Positions 1,146 through 9,849 of a DNA stretch of 64,000 nucleotides are shown one piece after another. The stretch is from an uncultured Planctomycetota bacterium. GTDB lineage: Bacteria; Planctomycetota; Planctomycetia; Gemmatales; Gemmataceae. Below the pieces are notes generated by a model. It ran no database searches. It had not been told where the DNA came from and was given only the letters and a program-made list of their open reading frames with translations. The translations under genes were made by a program, and so were the position numbers. The stretch's first letter is position 1; each line of letters starts with the position of its first letter. Location of the stretch: NCBI GenBank assembly GCA_963849325.1, contig CAWKHF010000014.1:15217-79216 (forward strand). Direction: 5' to 3'.

Positions 1146-4100
1146 TTACTCCAAAAGCGATTCCAGAAGTCCGTCGAGTTTTTCCTCGGGAAGCTGGTCT
1201 ACGTTCTCCGAGGTAAGGCCCGCCGGCGGTCGCGGTCCCGTCGGGCGCTCGTCGGGCTTTTCGCTCAGCGCCGCCGCCGCCCGGTCCCGAATCTGGCCCA
1301 GGCTCAGCCCACGGAGGAAATCGACCACGGACAGGGACAGCCCCAGGTGGTCCTCGATCCGGTTGCGCAGCTGAATGCCCGTCAGGGAATCGAGTCCGAA
1401 TGCCTGCAACGGTTTGTCCACGTCGGACGCGGAGACGTCCAGGCCGAGGACGTTGCGCAGCTGTCGCCGTAGGTACTCCTCAATCAGCCGGCGCCGCTCC
1501 GAGGGAGGGGCCGACAGGATCGCCTTGCGGTCGAGGTGCCTCGTCTTTTCCGTGCCGTTGACGCTGGCAAGCTCCGGCGCCGGTGTTCCCGGAACGTAGC
1601 GCTGGCCGCCCCGATAAGCCACCACCCGCTGCTCGTCGGAGTGGCGGAGGGTCTGATACAAGCATTCCACCTGTTCGGCGGCGGATTGATTCGGATCGAG
1701 GTCGATGAGACCCATCGATCCGTCGGCTCGCGGAGGGAAGAGCGATTGCCACTCCGCGGAAGACACCTCCGCTGTCTCCCTCCCCGGGAGGCAAGGAGCC
1801 GCGCCGCGCGTGACGACCCACGTCCCGGACAGTGAGTCGTTCGTGCAGACACGGGAAGGGTCATGCTGCCGGCAACTGCAAGGAGGTCTGGCGAGTGCGC
1901 CTGCCCCGTCCGTGAAGTCCACCAGGTAGATCGCCGCTCTCGGGTCGGAGGGCCGGATTGCCTCGGTGATGCAGGAATCGCCAGGGGCGAGACGAACAAC
2001 CGTGCCTCCATCCGCCTTCAACCTCGCGGCCAGGGCGTCCGCCAGGTTCAGCCGGTCCCCGGCCAGGATCCAGGTCGTCGAGGTCCGGGCCGGCCCCGTG
2101 GACCCGTTTCCGATGGGACTGATACCGTTCTTTCGGAACGTGGGCTTCGCTGCTGCTGACAGGCTGGTGTCATTGCGAGCCAGGATGACTACCTGGTCGG
2201 GGTCGGGCAATTGCGCATCGGCGGCGGGAAGGGCCGCGACGTTCCGCAAAACCTTCGTCGGCAAGCAGGCGTCCCCAGTCCGCGGGCGGCAGCAACGGGT
2301 ATTGGGGCCGCAGCTCCAGGTCGGCGAATTTCCACCATCCCTCGGTCAGGCCGAAGATAAGGTCCAGCAAGCGCCGCGGCCCCGTCCCTTCGAGCAGGAC
2401 CAGGACACCGCCGGGAGCCAGCAGACGACGCGCCGTGCGGACGCTGCTTCGCAGGTCCGGGGTGGCGTGCAGCACGTTGGCTGCCAGGACCACGTCGAAT
2501 TGGCCGTCCGCGAAGCCCTGCGGTCCCGGAGCTTTTTCCAGGTTGAACGTGCGGTACTGGACGAAGGGGAACGCCTCGAACTTGGCGGAGGCCTGGGCGA
2601 CGAACAGCCGCGATACGTCGGTGAAGACGTACTCGACCCGATCCGGCGGCAGGGCCGGCAGGACGTGCGCCGTGGTGCCGCCCGTGCCGCCGCCGACCTC
2701 CAGAATGTGGACGGGGCGATGGTCGGCGAGGCGCTCGATCAGGCGAGACAGCGAGCCGACCACCAGGTCGTTATAGAAGCGCGCCACCGGAGATTCCCGA
2801 TACAGCCGCTCCGTCCAGGAGGCGGCCTCGTCGCCGAACAGAACGTCGAGCGGATCGGCCTCGCCGCGCAGGACGCGGTGCATCCGCGTGGCGCAGCGAT
2901 GGGCCAACCGCAAGTCCGCCTCGAAAGTCGGATGACGGCCGAGCAGGTCGCGGTGCCAATCGCCAACGTCCCCCGCAGCGGGCATGCGGATCACGCGCCA
3001 GCCGGTCTCCGTGCGGGCGAGCCAGCCGTCCTCCGCCGCCATCTGCAACAGCCGGCCGAGAAGCCGGTGGTAAGAGGGAATCACTTTCAGCCGTCCGGCC
3101 AGTTCGTCGTCGCACACCTCGTCGCCGGGTCGCGGGGTCCAGCCGAGACGGCGCAGCGTGTCCACGACGTAGGCACCGGCCAAGCGATCAAATTCCTCTC
3201 TCAAGGGTATGAATTGTTCGATCCGATGCTTGGCTCGCAGCGGGGGAACGAGCGCAGCGGCGTCGGCGAGAGTCTCGAACCCCGTTGCTCCGCGGGGCAA
3301 GTGCTGGCGCCAGTTGGAACAGGGTCTCCAGTGGAGGCTTTCGCCAGTCCCACGGGAAGGTTTGGCCACGGCGGCAACAGGCGGCCGAGTGGGGGCGATG
3401 GCATCGACCCAGTAACGGAAGCGCTCGAAGGGGTAGGTCGGCAAATCGACGCGCGGGCGATGGGGCCGGCCATCCATCTGCTCCCAGCTCACGTTTGCTC
3501 CGTCCGCGTACAGACGGCCAAGGGCCGCGAGCATCTCTGCCTGATCGCTGCCTCCTCGCCGTAGCGACGACCGCCAGACTGTACCCTCCATCGCCTCCAG
3601 GCAGGCCGGGCCGAGCCGAGAGAGGACGGCGTCGGGTCCGACCTCGACGAAGTGCGTGATACCGGCCTTGTGGAGCGTGCGGATGCCGGCGGCGAACTGC
3701 ACCGGCCGGCGGGCGTGCTCCGCCCAGTATTCCGGCGCGGGGATGGCGTCGAAAAAGGCGCCGGTGACGTTGGAGACGAGGGGGATGGACGGCGGGCGGT
3801 GCGACATTCGCGCGGCCAACTCGCGCAGTCCCGGCAACGTCGGCTCGATCAGGGACGAATGGAAGGCGCGGCGGACGTGCAGCAGGCGGGTCTCGACTCC
3901 CTGGGCCGCTAATTCCTCGCGCAACGCCGTCGCCTCCGCGGCGTATCCGGCGACGACGATGCTGTCCGGGCCGTTGACCGCGGCGACGTCCGAGACGTCC
4001 GCCCCATCGCCCGACATGATTTCGTACCACATCCAGCGGCGCGAAGCACACCAGCATGGCGCCTTCGGGACAGTCCTGCATGAGCCGCCCGCGCCGGACG

Positions 4101-7100
4101 ATCAGCTCCAGGGCGCTCTCCAGCGGCAACACGCCGGCCACGCATGCCGCCACGTACTCTCCGACGCTGTGGCCCAGCAGCGCGGCCGGCTGGACGCCCC
4201 ATGCCCGCCACGTCTGCGCCAGGCGCGTATTCCACGGCGAAGAGGGCCGGCTGGGAGACATCGGTCTGCTCCAACCGTTCCACGTCGCGCAGAAGGTCCG
4301 GCAGGTTTTTCATGCCGAGGGCATCGAGGATGTCGGCGCAGCGATCCAGCGTGCGGCGATAGGTGAGGCACGATTCGTACAGCTCGCGCCCCATGCCGGC
4401 GTACTGCGCGCCCTGGCCCGTGAACAGGAACGCCACCCGGCCCGTCCAGCTCGCGCGCGGCCTGTCCTTCCTGGCAGGCGGGGTGATGGCCCGTCTCGGC
4501 CCAGGCGGCGAGGGCCGTGGACAAATCCTGAACCCGTGGCGCCGATCACGGCGAGCCGATACTCGAAGTGACATCGTTCTCGGCTGGCGGCGGCGCAAAC
4601 GTCCTCCACCGCGACGTCGGGGTGGTCGCGCAGCCATCCGGCGAAACGGCGCGCCAGCTCGCGCAGCGCCGTCTTACTTTTGGCCGACAGCGGCAGAAGA
4701 TGACAAGGTGACAAGGTGACAAGGTGACAAGGTGAACGGAGAACTGCCGCGGTTGCGGCCTCTCTGTTTCTCGTGTGTCCCTGGCTCTCTTGCGACAAGG
4801 TCACCTTGTCACCTTGTCTCCTTGTCACCTTGTCATCTTCGGGGGCTTGAGCGACGAGGACGTGAGCGTTGGTGCCGCCGAAGCCAAAGGAACTGACGGC
4901 GGCCAGCCGCGGACGTTGCTCGTTGGGCCAGGGGGTTAGCTCGCGGGGAATGTGGAAGCGCGTGCCCGCGAGTCCGATGCGCGGGTTGAGATTTTCCAGG
5001 TGCAGGTGCGGGGCGATCTGGCCGTGATGGACCTGCAAGACGGCCTTGATCAGACCGGCGATGCCCGCCGCCGCTTCCAGATGGCCGAGGTTCGTCTTGA
5101 CCGAAGACAGGGCGCAGGGCACGGTCGCGGAACCCAGGGCGGCTTGCAGAGCGTCGAACTCGATCGGGTCGCCCAGAGAGGTGCCGGTGCCGTGGGCCTC
5201 GATGCAAGACACGTCGTCGGGGGAACGGCCGGCGAGCCGGAGCACGCGACGGATTAGCTCGGTCTGCCGTGCGCCGTTGGGGGCGGTGATGCCGTTGCTC
5301 TTGCCGTCCTGATTGACGGCCGACGCCTCCACAACCGCGAGGATGCGATCGCCGTCGCGCACGGCCGCCGACAGCGGCTTGAGGACGACGACACCGCAGC
5401 CCTCGCCGCGGACGTAACCGTCGGCGGCGGCGTCGAACGTCTTGCACAGGCCGGCCGACGACAACATGCCGCCGTGCGACAGTACCTCGGTCAGATCCGG
5501 CGTGAGGATCAGATTGACGCCGCCCACCAGGGCCAACTCGCACTCGCCCAGCCGCAAGCTCTGACAGGCCAGGTGGATCGCCACCAGCGCCGAAGAGCAG
5601 GCCGTATCGACGGTCACGCTCGGGCCGTGCAGGTCGAGATGATAGGACAGGCGATGCGCGGCCATGCTGGCCGCATTGCCGACACCCGCGTAACCGTCGG
5701 AGGCGCAGCCGTGCGCCAGCAGCAGCCGACTGTAATCGTTTGTCGAGGCACCCACGAACACGCCCACGGGACGGCCGGCCAGGCCGTCCGCGGGCAAGCC
5801 GGCGTGCTCCAGCGCCTCCCAGGCCGTTTCCAGCAGCAAACGATGTTGCGGATCGATAAAGACGGCTTCTCGGGGAGCGATGCCGAAAAACGGAGCGTCG
5901 AAACAGGCGACGTCCGCCAGGTATCCGCCTCGCGTCGTGGCCGCGCCCTCGGCGGCGCGCTCCCAGCGACCTTCGGGCAACTCGTCAATCACACAGCGGC
6001 CATCTCGGAAGACCTGCCAGACCTCGTCCGGCCCGTGGGCCGTGGGGAAACGACAGCCGATGCCGACGACCGCGATCGACTGGCGCCTCGCCTCGCAGGC
6101 AGGAGCCTCCAGCTTCACGTCAGCCACGGAGTCGCGGGCCAGGACGCCGACGAGGGCGCCGACGGTCGGAGCGCTGTACAACAGAGTCGGCGATAGGGGA
6201 CGGCCCAGCCATTCTTGCAGGTCGGAAGCCAGGGCCGCCAGCGCCAGGGAACCCATGCCATAGGCGGACCAGGGCTTGTCCGCGTCGATCTGATCGGGCG
6301 GCAGTTTCAAGAGCCGGGCCATCCGAGCCACGAGCCAGTCGCGCAGCGCCTCGGAAGAAGTGGCGAGTGGCGAGTGGCGAGTGGCGAGGGAAGAAGAAGC
6401 CTCTTCACTAGCCACTGACCACTGGCCACTAGCCACTTCTTCCGAGGCACGTTCGATAGCGTTGAGTTCTCCGTCTCGGAAGCGACGGGCACATTCCTGG
6501 CGCTGCACTTTGCCGCTAGAAGCCCGCGGGATCGAGCCGACCTTGACCAGCAGCAAGTGGTGCAACTCCAACTCGAACAACTCGGCGAGGCGTTCGCGGA
6601 TGCGGGCGAATAACCCCTCGCCTCCGCCGGGCTTGTAATCGCGCGCCACCTCGAACACGAGCACCAGTTCGGTGCCGGACTCTCCCTCGACCGCGAAGGA
6701 GGCGCCGGTCTGTCCGCCCAGTTCGGGACAGGCGTCCGCGGCCGCCTCCTCCAGGTCGTGCGGGTAGAAGTTACGGCCCCGGCAGATGATCAGGTCCTTG
6801 CACCGGCCGCTGATGAAAAGCTCGCCTTCGTGGAAGAAGCCCATGTCGCCGGTGCGCAGGAAGGAGAGTTCCGGGTCTGAAGGACACCGAGCCTGAAACG
6901 TCTGCGCCGATTCTTCCGGCCGATCCCAGTAACCGCGGCGCGACGCTGGGACCGGACACCCAGATTTCTCCGATTCGCCCCTCGGAAAGCGGTTCGGCGC
7001 TGGCCGGATCGACGATGCGCACGGTCAGGTCCGGCAACGGCCGACCGCAGCCGACCATCGGCTGTCCGTCGCCTTCCAGCTCGACTCGTTTCTCGCCCAG

Positions 7101-8169
7101 GGCCGACCGCGAGAACGAGCGGACGATCGGAGGCGCGGTCCGGTCGCCGCCCGTCACCATGAGCGTCGCCTCGGCCAGACCGTAGCAGGGGAAGAAGGTC
7201 TCGCGGCGGAAGCCATACGGGGCGAAGACCTCGGCGAAGCGGTCCAGCGCTTCCGCGGCCACCGGCTCGGCGCCGACGTAGGCCACCTTCCAGCAGCTCA
7301 GGTCCAGACCCTGACATTTCTCCGGCGTCATGCGCTGGACGCAGTGGCGGAAGGCGAAGGTCGGCCCGCCGCTGACGTAGGCCCGCCGCGCGCTGATCGT
7401 CCGCAGCCAGAACATCGGCTCCTGAACGAAAGCGGCTGGCGGAAGGACCGTCATGGGCAGGCCGGTGAAGACTGTCTGCAACAGGTTGCCGATCAGCCCC
7501 ATGTCGTGAAAAGCCGGCAGCCAACACACGGTGTCCGTCTGGGGGGTCAACCCCAGGATTTCCCGCATACGGGTCAGGTTGTGGAGCAAGGCGGCGTGGG
7601 TCAGCATCACGCCCTTGGGCAGCCCGGTCGAACCGGAGGTGTACTGGAGGACGGCCAGGTCGTCGCGTCCGATGCTCGGCACGGGACACGTCCCGGCGTC
7701 GCTCTCCGCGATCGCGGAGGTGTCGAGCCAGTCGAGGGCTTGCAGCCGAGGCACTCGCGCCGTCAGCCGCCCCAGGTCGCGGAGGGTTTTCGTGTTCGTC
7801 AGGGCCAGGACGGACCCCGAATTCTCGGCCACGCTTTGCAGGCGCACGTCCGAGCGGTTGGCCCGCGGCGGGTAGAGGGGAACGGCGATCACGCCGGCAT
7901 ACAGACAGCCGAACAGGCCGACCAGGAAATCCAGACCCGGAGGGTAGCAGAGCAACGCCCTCTGCCCGGCCCGGCCTGCGGAGCACGGAGGCGACGGCAC
8001 GGGCTTGCCGGTCGAGCTGGCGGAAGGAGAGGCGGACCTCCTCGGCGCGGCCGTCCGCGAGGAAGGCATAGCCGTGGACGCTGCCTTCTTCGGCCCGAGC
8101 CTGGAGCGAATGAATCAGGCTTTCGTTGGTCGAGCCGTTTATGAGGGCGATGCGCGACATAGCAATCAT
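1146..8169 (-). CDS. FAAL-ACP-KS-AT-cMT-pseudoKR-ACP type I PKS megasynthase (split into several ORFs by indels)
   Basis: [49 protein letters not shown]1: [64 protein letters not shown] structural remnant: [27 protein letters not shown]2: [15 protein letters not shown]. Confidence 0.92.
4696..4840. repeat. Palindromic octamer-repeat (GACAAGGT) element inside the PKS KS-AT linker
   Basis: 21-bp terminal inverted repeat gaagatgacaaggtgacaagg/ccttgtcaccttgtcatcttc with tandem GACAAGGT units. Read in frame as [13 protein letters not shown]...[13 protein letters not shown]. Confidence 0.9.
6348..6448. repeat. Palindromic heptamer-repeat (GTGGCGA/CACTAGC) element inside the FAAL-ACP linker
   Basis: Terminal inverted repeat gcctcggaagaagtggc/gccacttcttccgaggc with tandem heptamers. 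Read in frame as [14 protein letters not shown]...[13 protein letters not shown]. Confidence 0.9.
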
Positions 8170-8484
8170 GGGGCAGAGGCCAATCCGAGGAAACCTCGGT
8201 GGTGATCATTCGGTGCGAGAGGATCTCTCCCCTCCACCTCGACTCTTTTCCTGTACGGCACCAACCGAGAACTGTGACACAATCTTGCCCGGAGACCGCG
8301 AGGGATTCAAGGATAAAGGCAATCTTCTCGCCAATATCCCAGGACGCCCCGTCGGAAGAAAATGCCCAATCCACGTCTTCGCCAAAGACCATCGGTTCGA
8401 GACGCTGATTGATTCTCCCTTCCTGGTTGAATCCGCACGGAAGGCGGGCCGAATCGACGATCGCGGCCCGTTTGTGGCTACCCT

Positions 8485-8596
8485 GGAAAAAGAAGCCGGC
8501 ATGGCCGAACACCCTGAGGTATTCGATCACGCCGGCTTACTCGTCAACGGACCCCCCGGCATGGCCGGGTTGTCCTTCATCTAGTCATCCGACGAT
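8485..8596 (-). promoter_or_regulatory. Candidate structured leader RNA (attenuator/riboswitch-like) with an intrinsic terminator upstream of the PKS
   Basis: Minus strand: helix UCGUCGG/UUGACGA encloses hairpin GGAC..CCCGG-CCAUG-CCGGG..GUCC. It is followed by hairpin AAGCCGGCGUGAUCGAAUACC-UCAG-GGUGUUCGGCCAUGCCGGCUU and CUUUUU. The 12-mer CGGCCAUGCCGG is present twice. Confidence 0.65.
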
Positions 8597-8790
8597 TACA
8601 ATCGAAATCTTTAGCGCAGTTGGTGAAAAGCTCACTGCGACTCCGCTACGTTTTGTCATTCTACGGCTCGGGACCGGGAAAGCAAGGGGATTGTCGTTCC
8701 GCGCCCGCTATCCCGCTATCCGAATCCCCAGCTCGACTGGGAATCGAGAGTTCGCATGGACTCGACCCCGATTGCCCGTTTCGCCGCAAG

Positions 8791-8819
8791 TTGACGGGTG
8801 CCAAAGGGCTGCCTACAAT
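8791..8819 (+). promoter_or_regulatory. Sigma70-like promoter
   Basis: TTGACG-17 bp-TACAAT about 90 bp upstream of the ATG at 8911. Confidence 0.65.
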
Positions 8820-8854
8820 TCGGGTGCGATGGCTGCCGCTTCGCCTCGGGAGAA

Positions 8855-8878
8855 CGCTAAGCCGCAAGCGGCTTGGCG
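8855..8878. repeat. Short palindromic repeat (AAGCCGCAAGCGGCTT family); other copies at 1132-1147 and 9858-9915
   Basis: Same hairpin core aagccgc-aa-gcggc found in three intergenic spots. Confidence 0.8.
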
Positions 8879-8910
8879 GAGGCGGCACGTCTCGAAGAAA
8901 GGGAGTTCCC

Positions 8911-9849
8911 ATGAAACGTTTGATCGCTTCCGTCGTCCTTCTCGGTCTGTTCGTCGTCGTCGGCACGTCCTGCTGCGCCGGCCGACAGGACCGCAGAGCG
9001 GAGCCGGTCGCCCCGGAGGTGACGCCGCGAGCCGCCGAACCGGACGAGAAAGTTGATCTGACACCCAAGGCGCTCGATCGCATCCCGGTCGGCACTGTCA
9101 TCGGCGCCGCGCGCCGAAGGGTTGGTCCAACCTGGTTCTGTTCGCCATCCCGACGTTGACGCGCGAGGACGAGCAGTCCGCGCCGCGCATGGCCGCCCAC
9201 TACGCACAAGCTGTTCAAGTTCACGGTGCTGGCCAACGTCGCGCGCGGCAAGGGCGGCGACAAGGCCCCATTCTATCTGCAAAAAGTCGCGCGTGGCTTC
9301 GCCACGACCATCGACGGCAAGAACACCATCGTCAGCGGCGCCAACACGATGGGCGCCGACCTGGGTCTGTTCGGTCGTCGCATCCTCGACGAGAACGAGA
9401 AGGTCCTCGACGAGGATGTTCGGCAAGTGGTCCGCAGCAACACCATGCTGATCTTCGACGCCCAAGCGGTCATGCTGCGGGGCGGCGATCACGTCAACAT
9501 GATCATGCGTCACGCCCTCCTGGTCGATCCGGCCAGCGGCCGCCTCTACACGCTGGTGTGGCTGCTGACACGAGATTATCAGCCGGCCGAGAAGGCCATC
9601 CAGCTGCTGCCCGAGGGGATGCGCGAGAAACGGCTGCTGAGCGTCAAGCGCGATAAGTTCTCGGCGCTGGGCATCCCCAACCGCGACGCCTTCGCCCTCC
9701 GACAGCTTCCCCAGGGCACGGCGATCCCTTACACGCCGGCGCTCAAGGAGGCGGCCAGCGTCAAGAAGTTCCAGGAGTTGCAGGTGCCCAAGATCGAGGA
9801 GACGCTGCGAACCGTGGCGGCGACAACGGCCGCCAAGACCGCCAAGTGA
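8911..9849 (+). CDS. Hypothetical exported protein/lipoprotein (two indels)
   Basis: RBS AAAGGGAG; signal peptide MKRLIASVVLLGLFVVVGTSCC. The frame continues through ORFs 9156+ and 9226..9849. Confidence 0.75.

Follow-up and report, generated by a model that had tools for sequence, protein, structure and literature searches.

The minus strand of a 64,000-nucleotide (nt) stretch of DNA from an uncultured Planctomycetota bacterium of the family Gemmataceae (contig CAWKHF010000014.1, positions 15,217 to 79,216; the whole stretch is hereafter called the window) carries a structured element upstream of the genes for a fatty acyl-AMP ligase (FAAL) and a polyketide synthase (PKS). This element belongs, as one of many copies, to a conserved RNA family of approximately 115 nt that is absent from Rfam 15, and the best reading of the data is that of a new RNA family that is not specific to polyketide genes. 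Comparative sequence analysis and predicted folds suggest that it is, on balance, probably a conserved 5′-leader RNA that acts in cis as a conditional transcription terminator (attenuator).

The element in the window

The element is located in a 741-nt divergent intergenic region (8170-8910), flanked by the minus-strand FAAL gene at 8169 and by a plus-strand gene with a signal-peptide-like start at 8911. The original prediction of a structured minus-strand RNA was borne out by folding, with the structure at 8485-8600. The minimum free energy (MFE) of the minus strand at 8480-8600 is −61.0 kcal/mol versus −41.3 ± 3.9 kcal/mol for 200 dinucleotide shuffles (z = −5.12, with 0 of the 200 as good), whereas the plus strand reaches −46 kcal/mol at best. 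The MFE fold contains both of the hairpins that had been proposed, namely, the inner one (GGAC..CCCGG/CCGGG..GUCC, 8575-8549, minus strand) and the 21-bp one (8538-8493, minus strand), which runs into the U-tract UUCUUUUU (8494-8487) and is also marked by a terminator scan. The minus-strand orientation assigned at the outset is fixed by the covariance model, since the scores of 64 full-length copies on the element strand (76 to 133 bits) far exceed those on the antisense strand (at most 48.7 bits). The parts of the window copy and the gene that follows it are listed below in the order of the predicted transcription.

8685-8680, minus strand: −35 hexamer TTGCTT of the predicted element promoter (strict promoter regular expression match; consensus CCaCTTGCtTTCCcCG)
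8663-8658, minus strand: −10 hexamer TAGAAT, consensus TAcAAT (promoter motif alignment and regular expression)
8648-8612, minus strand: variable upstream hairpin P0 of the long-form leader, a weakly supported feature (leader fold)
8596-8581, minus strand: near-invariant 5′ tail (A)UCGUCGGAUGACUAG, in which CGUCGG is 8594-8589 (columns invariant or nearly so in the 32- and 64-sequence alignments)
8585-8539, minus strand: covarying hairpin with ACU/AGU, UGA/UUG, GGAC/GUCC, and CCCGG/CCGGG and conserved internal loops (RNAalifold consensus)
8538-8487, minus strand: predicted intrinsic terminator, with stem 8538-8518 paired with 8513-8493, loop UCAG, and U-tract UUCUUUUU at 8494-8487 (fold, terminator scan, and covariation)
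8535-8530, minus strand: CCGGCG in the terminator 5′ arm, predicted partner of the tail CGUCGG at 8594-8589 (nascent-RNA folds; coaxial with ACU/AGU)
8486-8170, minus strand: spacer of 317 nt from the terminator to the FAAL start, unique in the genome and unconserved
8169-6771, minus strand: FAAL-type AMP-binding gene that opens the polyketide synthase genes (open reading frame lists and Pfam AMP-binding)

Two coding explanations were considered and rejected. The open reading frames (ORFs) that cross the element (7889-8530, minus strand; 8126-8584, plus strand) match no Pfam family, and the GC content of the element region is 55 to 59% versus 65 to 72% in the flanking genes. A leader-peptide attenuator was discarded because neither the 17-codon ORF (ATG at 8580) nor the AUG within GGAUGAC is conserved in the 64 aligned rows. 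In the former, the G is replaced by A in 18 of the 64 rows and the base preceding the U may be A, C, G, or U, and the latter reads AAG or ACG in some rows.

Distribution and novelty of the family

When positions 8170-8911 were searched as DNA against 41 related genomes, the repeated part proved to be 8487-8595 of the window. G002 contributes no fewer than 13 copies and G012 no fewer than 12, single matches come from G007, G019, G018, G023, and G006, and the window's own genome yielded a second copy in this search. The consensus of 32 copies reads GUCGUCGGAUGACUAG, followed by the hairpin, GAGUA, the stem AAGCCGRCGUGGUCGAAUACC/GGUGUUCGRCCACGYCGGCUU, and then 7 to 9 U. An exact-pattern scan of a named genome collection returned at least 136 stretches, 80 of which were taken with their flanks, and the covariance model confirmed 88 copies in 74 of these 80 loci. 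The alignment of 64 full-length copies, which come from 57 sources, has a mean column identity of 76%.

Three full copies were found by the covariance model in the window's own genome (122.6, 113.4, and 90.5 bits). Among the 151 genomes of the window's family, 58 are positive, representing 47 of 90 genera, and as many as 24 copies per genome were observed among the matches scored, often clustered in islands. Outside this family, 5 of the 150 genomes sampled from the phylum were matched under stricter filters. Both scans used speed filters and scored a maximum of 24 candidates per genome. Within the phylum, the element is thus frequent in a single family and patchily distributed outside it; a phylum-wide occurrence was rejected on the basis of the 5 matches in 150 genomes under these filters. 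The named records with the element are labelled Gemmataceae, Isosphaeraceae, Pirellulales, Thermoguttaceae, Planctomycetaceae, Tepidisphaeraceae, Phycisphaerales, and “Ca. Kuenenia.” One contig labelled as a delta proteobacterium holds two copies (L151 and L152), all other labelled records listed being planctomycetes, and it is either a mislabelled bin or a case of transfer.

The closest relative of the window copy, L029, belongs to the same genus and is 82% identical, including the upstream leader. Divergent and tandem pairs of elements that lie a few hundred bases apart, with the promoter motif on each copy, were also observed. L036 has three copies within 1 kb (4523-4639, minus strand; 4889-5006 and 5396-5511, plus strand), and L069 has two (1501-1621, minus strand; 2011-2125, plus strand).

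The original view that the element is not recognizable as a known aptamer family was supported by Rfam. A search of Rfam 15 (4,227 families) with window positions 7800-9300 at E values up to 10 returned nothing except an unrelated microRNA (miRNA) model at 8044-8089, and the same database at E values up to 1 gave, for eight other copy-bearing loci, just miRNA and small nucleolar RNA (snoRNA) models elsewhere in L035. A description of the element was not found in Rfam or in the literature searched. The available parts of three genome-by-genome discovery papers (PMC11109978, PMC8632094, and PMC6429828) make no mention of “Planctomycetes,” and the main text of a preprint (10.64898/2026.10.21.760802) makes none of Planctomyc, CsrA, MpsC, or DUF2294. 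The Rhodopirellula-1 motif is a candidate cis-regulatory RNA from Planctomycetes without an Rfam accession (Weinberg et al., 2010, PMC2864571). Identity with this motif was ruled out, given that the alignment rows in the supplement of that paper are unrelated in sequence, differ in architecture, and contain neither GUCGUCGGAUGACUAG nor GAGUAAGCCG nor the terminator.

Conserved pairing and a predicted competitor of the terminator

The RNAalifold consensus of the first alignment (32 copies) comprises 36 pairs, 20 of them with compensatory changes. Pair changes were then counted on the 64-copy alignment, where 96.5% of the cells are paired and 25 of the 36 pairs are changed on both sides, so that the homologues covary, as the original prediction of a functional RNA implied. 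None of 500 shuffles was as high on all five measures, and slid controls were 31 to 49% paired. In the covarying hairpin (helix 2), 10 of the 12 pairs are changed on both sides, with 97.2% of the cells paired; the terminator stem, which is present in all 64 aligned copies, has 15 of 21 such pairs and 95.7% of the cells paired. The hairpin and the terminator are well supported because of these counts. The three pairs of helix 1 (ACU/AGU) are uninformative because they do not covary, given that two never vary and one departs by unpaired cells alone.

The pairing scheme first proposed for the switch was retained only in part. The outer helix UCGUCGG/UUGACGA can be drawn in the window copy, but it falls outside the MFE fold, and across the 64 copies 84.8% of its cells are paired, without covariation and with one pair unpaired in 22. 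The 12-mer CGGCCATGCCGG indeed occurs exactly twice on the minus strand of the window, at 8496-8507 and 8556-8567 (0.07 occurrences expected). Its suggested role as an antiterminator, however, is not conserved and does no better than shuffles (81.3% of the cells paired versus 80.7%; 43 of 500 shuffles as high; one pair unpaired in 39 of 64 copies), and the duplication is a peculiarity of the window copy. Mutually exclusive pairing is predicted by the folds, with the conserved candidate competitor of the terminator being the tail CGUCGG with CCGRCG rather than the pairings originally put forward.

CCGRCG is the base of the terminator 5′ arm, and its pairing with the tail prolongs the ACU/AGU helix across a purine-rich internal loop. 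Across the 64 copies, 95.6% of the cells of this tail-arm helix can pair. The helix was followed in the nascent RNA, folded from the element start through the terminator loop, and it is part of the MFE fold predicted for the window copy. Its mean probability in the 64 nascent folds is 0.86, exceeding 0.5 in 57 of them. In a wider set of 140 of the 149 copies (9 were skipped because the anchors were absent), it exceeds 0.5 in 133, with a mean of 0.94, versus 39 of 140 and a mean of 0.34 for shuffled tails. Position U9 is constantly U and faces A in 42 rows but G in 21; this facing base also covaries with the terminator 3′ arm (A-U in 42 and G-C in 21). Judged from the alignment, such a pattern is what would be expected of a base with two alternative partners.

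Promoter and upstream leader

The anchored flanks contain a conserved promoter motif, CCaCTTGCtTTCCcCG and then TAcAAT, which is found upstream of 94 of the 145 copies with enough upstream sequence and has a 16-nt spacer in 72 of these 94. The −10 box ends 45 to 60 nt ahead of the core in the long form, or 0 to 40 nt ahead of it. The hexamers of the window copy were located by a strict regular expression (G000:C14:23874-23901, equivalent to window 8658-8685), and the usual spacing predicts a transcript start near 8651. In the 8.16-Mb genome, this expression has only 6 matches, of which 2 belong to elements, too few to assign a sigma factor. The alignment flanks show this promoter and are free of visible terminal inverted repeats and target duplications.

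The upstream hairpin P0 is weakly supported. In folding of the 62 long-form leaders, the mean z score is −1.6 and 23 fall below −2; the arms GGAG and CUCC occur together in 14 of the 62. The idea that this hairpin provides CsrA with a second site was rejected because GGAG is present in just 22 of the 62 long forms.

Genes downstream of the element

The 151 instances of the element were reduced to 149 nonredundant copies, and ORFs called in the 1.5 kb downstream were kept if they had homologues at other loci; these gene calls are ORF heuristics. The nearest supported downstream ORF is co-oriented with the element in 97 copies, reversed in 5 (at least 1 of which is an artefact of the overlap filter), and absent in 47 (6 of which have less than 300 nt of sequence). 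The placement relative to genes is nonrandom, in line with the original prediction. The co-oriented ORFs start within 100 nt of the terminator in 66 of the 97 cases, at 101 to 300 nt in 13, at 301 to 600 nt in 11, and farther away in 7. A cruder heuristic based on GC content at third codon positions (GC3), applied to the 41 copies that have no supported ORF but sufficient downstream sequence, assigned 16 forward genes, 5 reverse genes, and none in 20.

The commonest downstream genes are mpsC/DUF2294, csrA, and general-stress genes. MpsC/DUF2294 forms the largest cluster, in which 27 ORFs lie no more than 100 nt from the element, and 14 ORF entries are CsrA sized, two of these being one ORF. 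In addition to MpsC/DUF2294 and CsrA, the recurrent genes identified by Pfam encode receiver-domain proteins/response regulators, family-4 glycosyltransferases, Hsp20, ferritin/Dps, YflT, DUF1328, Band 7, fatty-acid desaturase, sigma-70, extracytoplasmic function (ECF) sigma factors, Transgly_assoc, KaiC, Hsp70, FKBP, and AMP-binding enzymes. Records labelled as different classes share these gene families behind the element, and the copy labelled “Ca. Kuenenia” is directly followed by an MpsC-cluster ORF and then by a CsrA-cluster ORF.

A core locus was recognized, in which a high-scoring mpsC (approximately 120 to 130 bits) is divergent upstream of the element and a lower-scoring mpsC (approximately 70 to 90 bits) lies directly downstream, continued by ORFs of the csrA cluster and often of the receiver protein cluster too. 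In G054:C10, for example, mpsC (142802-143137, minus strand), the element (143365-143480, plus strand), and the second mpsC (143517-143828, plus strand) are arranged in this way. The two-mpsC arrangement is also seen at G000:C6:174329-175335 and in about 15 other places. A paralogue of ribosomal protein S14 follows mpsC and csrA downstream of the element in L097 (1360-1629, plus strand), and L039 has a similar ORF in a similar place.

MpsC is present in 51 of the 58 element-positive genomes of the family versus 31 of the 93 element-negative ones, a link that is overstated by the relatedness of the genomes. CsrA matches were found in all 151 family genomes (1 to 15 each, with 9 in the window's genome), and for this reason the presence of CsrA does not discriminate the element-positive genomes. 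The set of CsrA paralogues is unusually large for this regulator. We found no literature that joins DUF2294 to an RNA motif.

The dedicated conserved promoter, the strong terminator conserved in sequence, and the conserved unpaired 5′ end containing GGAUGA would also suit a free-standing RNA. Such a trans-acting small RNA, of approximately 115 to 165 nt, would either employ the single-stranded 5′ tail as its seed or titrate CsrA-family proteins as a decoy. The element resembles the CsrB/RsmZ decoys and CsrA-bound leaders in having GGA[U/A/C]GA in an unpaired conserved stretch, and it further resembles CsrB/RsmZ in its own promoter, rho-independent terminator, multiple copies (tandem and divergent pairs included, e.g., L036), and adjacent csrA. 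The csrA genes are frequent neighbors, CsrA paralogues occur in 151 of 151 family genomes, and a convergent gene comes next in a few copies. The position of the element is nevertheless tied to the neighboring gene, as the 97 co-oriented versus 5 reversed ORFs show, and the 66 of 97 ORFs that start within 100 nt of the terminator leave no room for a separate promoter. Csr/Rsm decoys carry many GGA motifs, whereas the element has a single conserved GGA, no Csr/Rsm match in Rfam, and a fixed place before co-oriented genes. Moreover, the 12-mers and 16-mers complementary to the tail in the window's genome are as numerous as for shuffled patterns when perfect pairing alone is counted, and the element itself accounts for those perfect 12-mer matches in which the CTAG end is included. 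We consider a trans-acting RNA unlikely, and it is equally unlikely that the gene placement reflects co-regulated islands or leaky read-through, as that explanation would have it.

The FAAL-polyketide genes of the window

The distance from the element to the megasynthase start, originally put at about 320 nt, was measured as 317 nt from the U-tract to the ATG at 8169. The gene that begins there matches Pfam AMP-binding (E = 8.8e−58, from profile position 45), and the ORFs after it contain acyl carrier protein (ACP) and ketosynthase, acyltransferase and methyltransferase, and ACP domains. No nonribosomal peptide synthetase (NRPS) domain was detected in the 8 kb of the window that were analyzed. 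The FAAL gene lacks a continuous reading frame, its N terminus being in the 8169 frame and the remainder in the 8069 frame. Other genes are split over frames as well, such as the polyketide synthase ORFs (1146-6844), the plus-strand gene at 8911-9849 (which continues in the 9226-9849 frame), and the WD40 gene beside the third element copy (L076, 15-1072). The split genes indicate either an assembly rich in small indels or pseudogenes.

The cluster of AMP-binding ORFs has three members, the window FAAL plus one ORF immediately behind the element in each of L136 and L148. Over 351 residues, the window FAAL shares 47% identity with the L136 ORF (E = 3e−106), and in L136 the ATG lies approximately 50 nt past the U-tract. 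Since FAAL homologues follow the element in these two other records, the link between the element and FAAL genes recurs, and sequence comparison makes it plausible. Of the original assignment of the element to the control of a PKS-NRPS operon, this FAAL link is the plausible part; the family as a whole is not polyketide specific. The spacer at 8170-8485/8486 is the sole copy in the genome, and it contains no mpsC or csrA remnant (blastx, E values up to 10) and no Pfam family.

The long unconserved spacer before the FAAL gene, together with the fact that the L029 copy precedes mpsC and not a FAAL gene, would fit a repeat without any switch. Such a repeat would be either a terminator or insulator that works constitutively near the promoter or a selfish sequence spreading within genomes, and the window copy may then be an orphan with no control over the polyketide genes. 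The many copies per genome, their clustering in islands, and the high sequence identity among them point the same way. This explanation is nonetheless highly unlikely because of the covariation and the recurring gene families. Indeed, compensatory changes maintain the helices, identical gene families follow in records labelled as different classes, and FAAL genes directly follow in two other records. The strongly nonrandom gene orientation and the flanks devoid of terminal inverted repeats and target duplications also argue against a switchless repeat.

The remainder of the intergenic region contains two further features, both between the element and the divergent plus-strand gene. A sigma-70-like site on the plus strand (8791-8819, TTGACG-17-TACAAT, 10 of 12 matches) lies upstream of that gene and is the sole one in 7900-9200, where 0.1 would be expected. 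At 8834-8876, between this site and the 8911 ATG, both strands carry a short palindromic hairpin repeat with the core AAGCCGCTTGCGGCTT. The window's genome contains 34 occurrences of its 16-mer and 191 of its 12-nt core, frequently arranged in inverted pairs, and there are many matches in related genomes. It looks like a repetitive extragenic palindromic (REP)-type element or a shared terminator.

Proposed mechanism of attenuation

From the family, its structure, the promoter motif, and the position before co-oriented genes, we infer a switch, the termination on which it would act, and an effector. Transcription would begin at the promoter of the element (−35 at 8685-8680 and −10 at 8663-8658). 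As the RNA emerges, the tail CGUCGG (8594-8589) would pair with CCGGCG (8535-8530), continuing the ACU/AGU helix, and the upstream part would form one closed rod with conserved purine-rich internal loops in which the base of the terminator 5′ arm is held. Once the 3′ arm is made, the more stable 21-bp terminator could displace the 6-bp helix, and transcription would end near 8487. A factor that makes the closed rod more stable, or that captures the tail with its GGA, would set the choice between stopping and reading through. For the window copy, the target of regulation would be the gene of the FAAL-polyketide synthase, 317 nt downstream.

Several observations weigh against this attenuator model. 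The tail-arm helix does not covary, and 41 of 500 shuffles pair as highly; covariation cannot speak on this helix because both of its sides are nearly invariant. The full-length RNA favors the terminator fold by a median of 13.6 kcal/mol (range, 9.5 to 24.3 kcal/mol), and on these computed energies termination would still occur if the 6-bp helix were the sole obstacle. Across copies, the terminator stem keeps its sequence, which fits an RNA that is functional as a whole; most riboswitch classes have variable expression platforms. The single GGA conserved in the core is a thin basis for CsrA binding, the window long form having two or three. The gene in the window starts 317 nt past the terminator, behind an unconserved spacer that could hold a separate promoter, and a convergent gene is next in about 10 of the 123 copies with a callable neighbor. 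Finally, an AlphaFold model of MpsC (pLDDT, 80.9) compared with the Protein Data Bank (PDB) by Foldseek gave no match at E values of 0.001 or less, and a sequence search for solved relatives at E values up to 1 returned chance-level rows alone.

Candidate effectors of the proposed attenuator

A protein effector from the core operon, either a CsrA paralogue or MpsC/DUF2294, is slightly preferred over a small-molecule ligand. In favor of a protein are the conservation of both stems and terminator at the sequence level, the GGA of the tail, and the presence of csrA and mpsC in the core operon, an arrangement known from PyrR-type systems; the binding of CsrA or MpsC to the element RNA is a conjecture. 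PyrR/pyr, TRAP/trp, and HutP/hut are protein-mediated attenuators in which the regulator is encoded in the regulated operon. The proposed attenuator would be similar to them in that a protein on a conserved single-stranded motif would decide the fate of a leader terminator. Moreover, the candidate regulators mpsC and csrA are the commonest genes downstream, and several loci per genome share the leader. None of those proteins or RNA motifs, however, is involved in the element.

If the effector were instead a small molecule, the element would be a riboswitch, which is a special case of the cis-acting attenuator. The closed rod would then be the aptamer, and a metabolite or alarmone would lock the tail-arm helix and allow read-through, giving an ON switch for a general-stress regulon. 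We regard such a ligand, and the riboswitch built on it, as possible but doubtful. Conserved unpaired purines and internal loops flank the covarying helices, the copies are located in 5′ leaders near start codons, and no match exists in Rfam 15. Copies are also numerous, up to 24 per genome among the matches scored, which resembles second-messenger riboswitch classes, and the signalling-type regulon of sigma factors, response regulators, KaiC-like proteins, chaperones, and Dps suits a stress signal. On the other hand, the stems and terminator are conserved in sequence and not in pairing alone (mean column identity, 76%), one terminator platform was present in every copy examined, with no translational variant seen, and the downstream genes have no metabolic theme that would point to a ligand.

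The cyclic-di-GMP-I class consists of riboswitches that act through terminators and antiterminators and occur in many copies per genome. Like riboswitches of this type, the element is a structured leader before co-oriented genes, with an intrinsic terminator and a predicted competing upstream pairing, and its many copies per genome precede signalling and stress genes. Unlike them, it has no Rfam match, its terminator is conserved in sequence, and a dedicated promoter travels along with it. The more specific proposal that the element comprises the aptamer and expression platform of a new riboswitch class, which would respond to a stress alarmone or second messenger by turning on a general-stress regulon in the Planctomycetota, is rather doubtful. 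The same rather low probability applies to the regulon as this proposal would define it, consisting of chaperones, Dps, sigma factors, CsrA paralogues, MpsC, and, in some lineages, FAAL-polyketide genes.

Significance

To our knowledge, almost nothing is known of RNA-based regulation in the Planctomycetota. The family described here comprises hundreds of copies with clear covariation, a defined promoter motif, and coherent downstream stress genes, and the pairing of the tail with the terminator 5′ arm is a concrete candidate for a switch. Should the effector be a small molecule, the family would constitute a new riboswitch class, and if this were a stress alarmone or second messenger, the riboswitch would be the RNA-based counterpart in this phylum to the sigma-factor-based general stress responses found elsewhere. 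Should the switch proposed here prove genuine, a stress regulon would be defined in a little-studied phylum, and the uncharacterized DUF2294/MpsC and the many CsrA paralogues would become approachable through a function. The switch would also offer a lever to activate silent FAAL-polyketide gene clusters.

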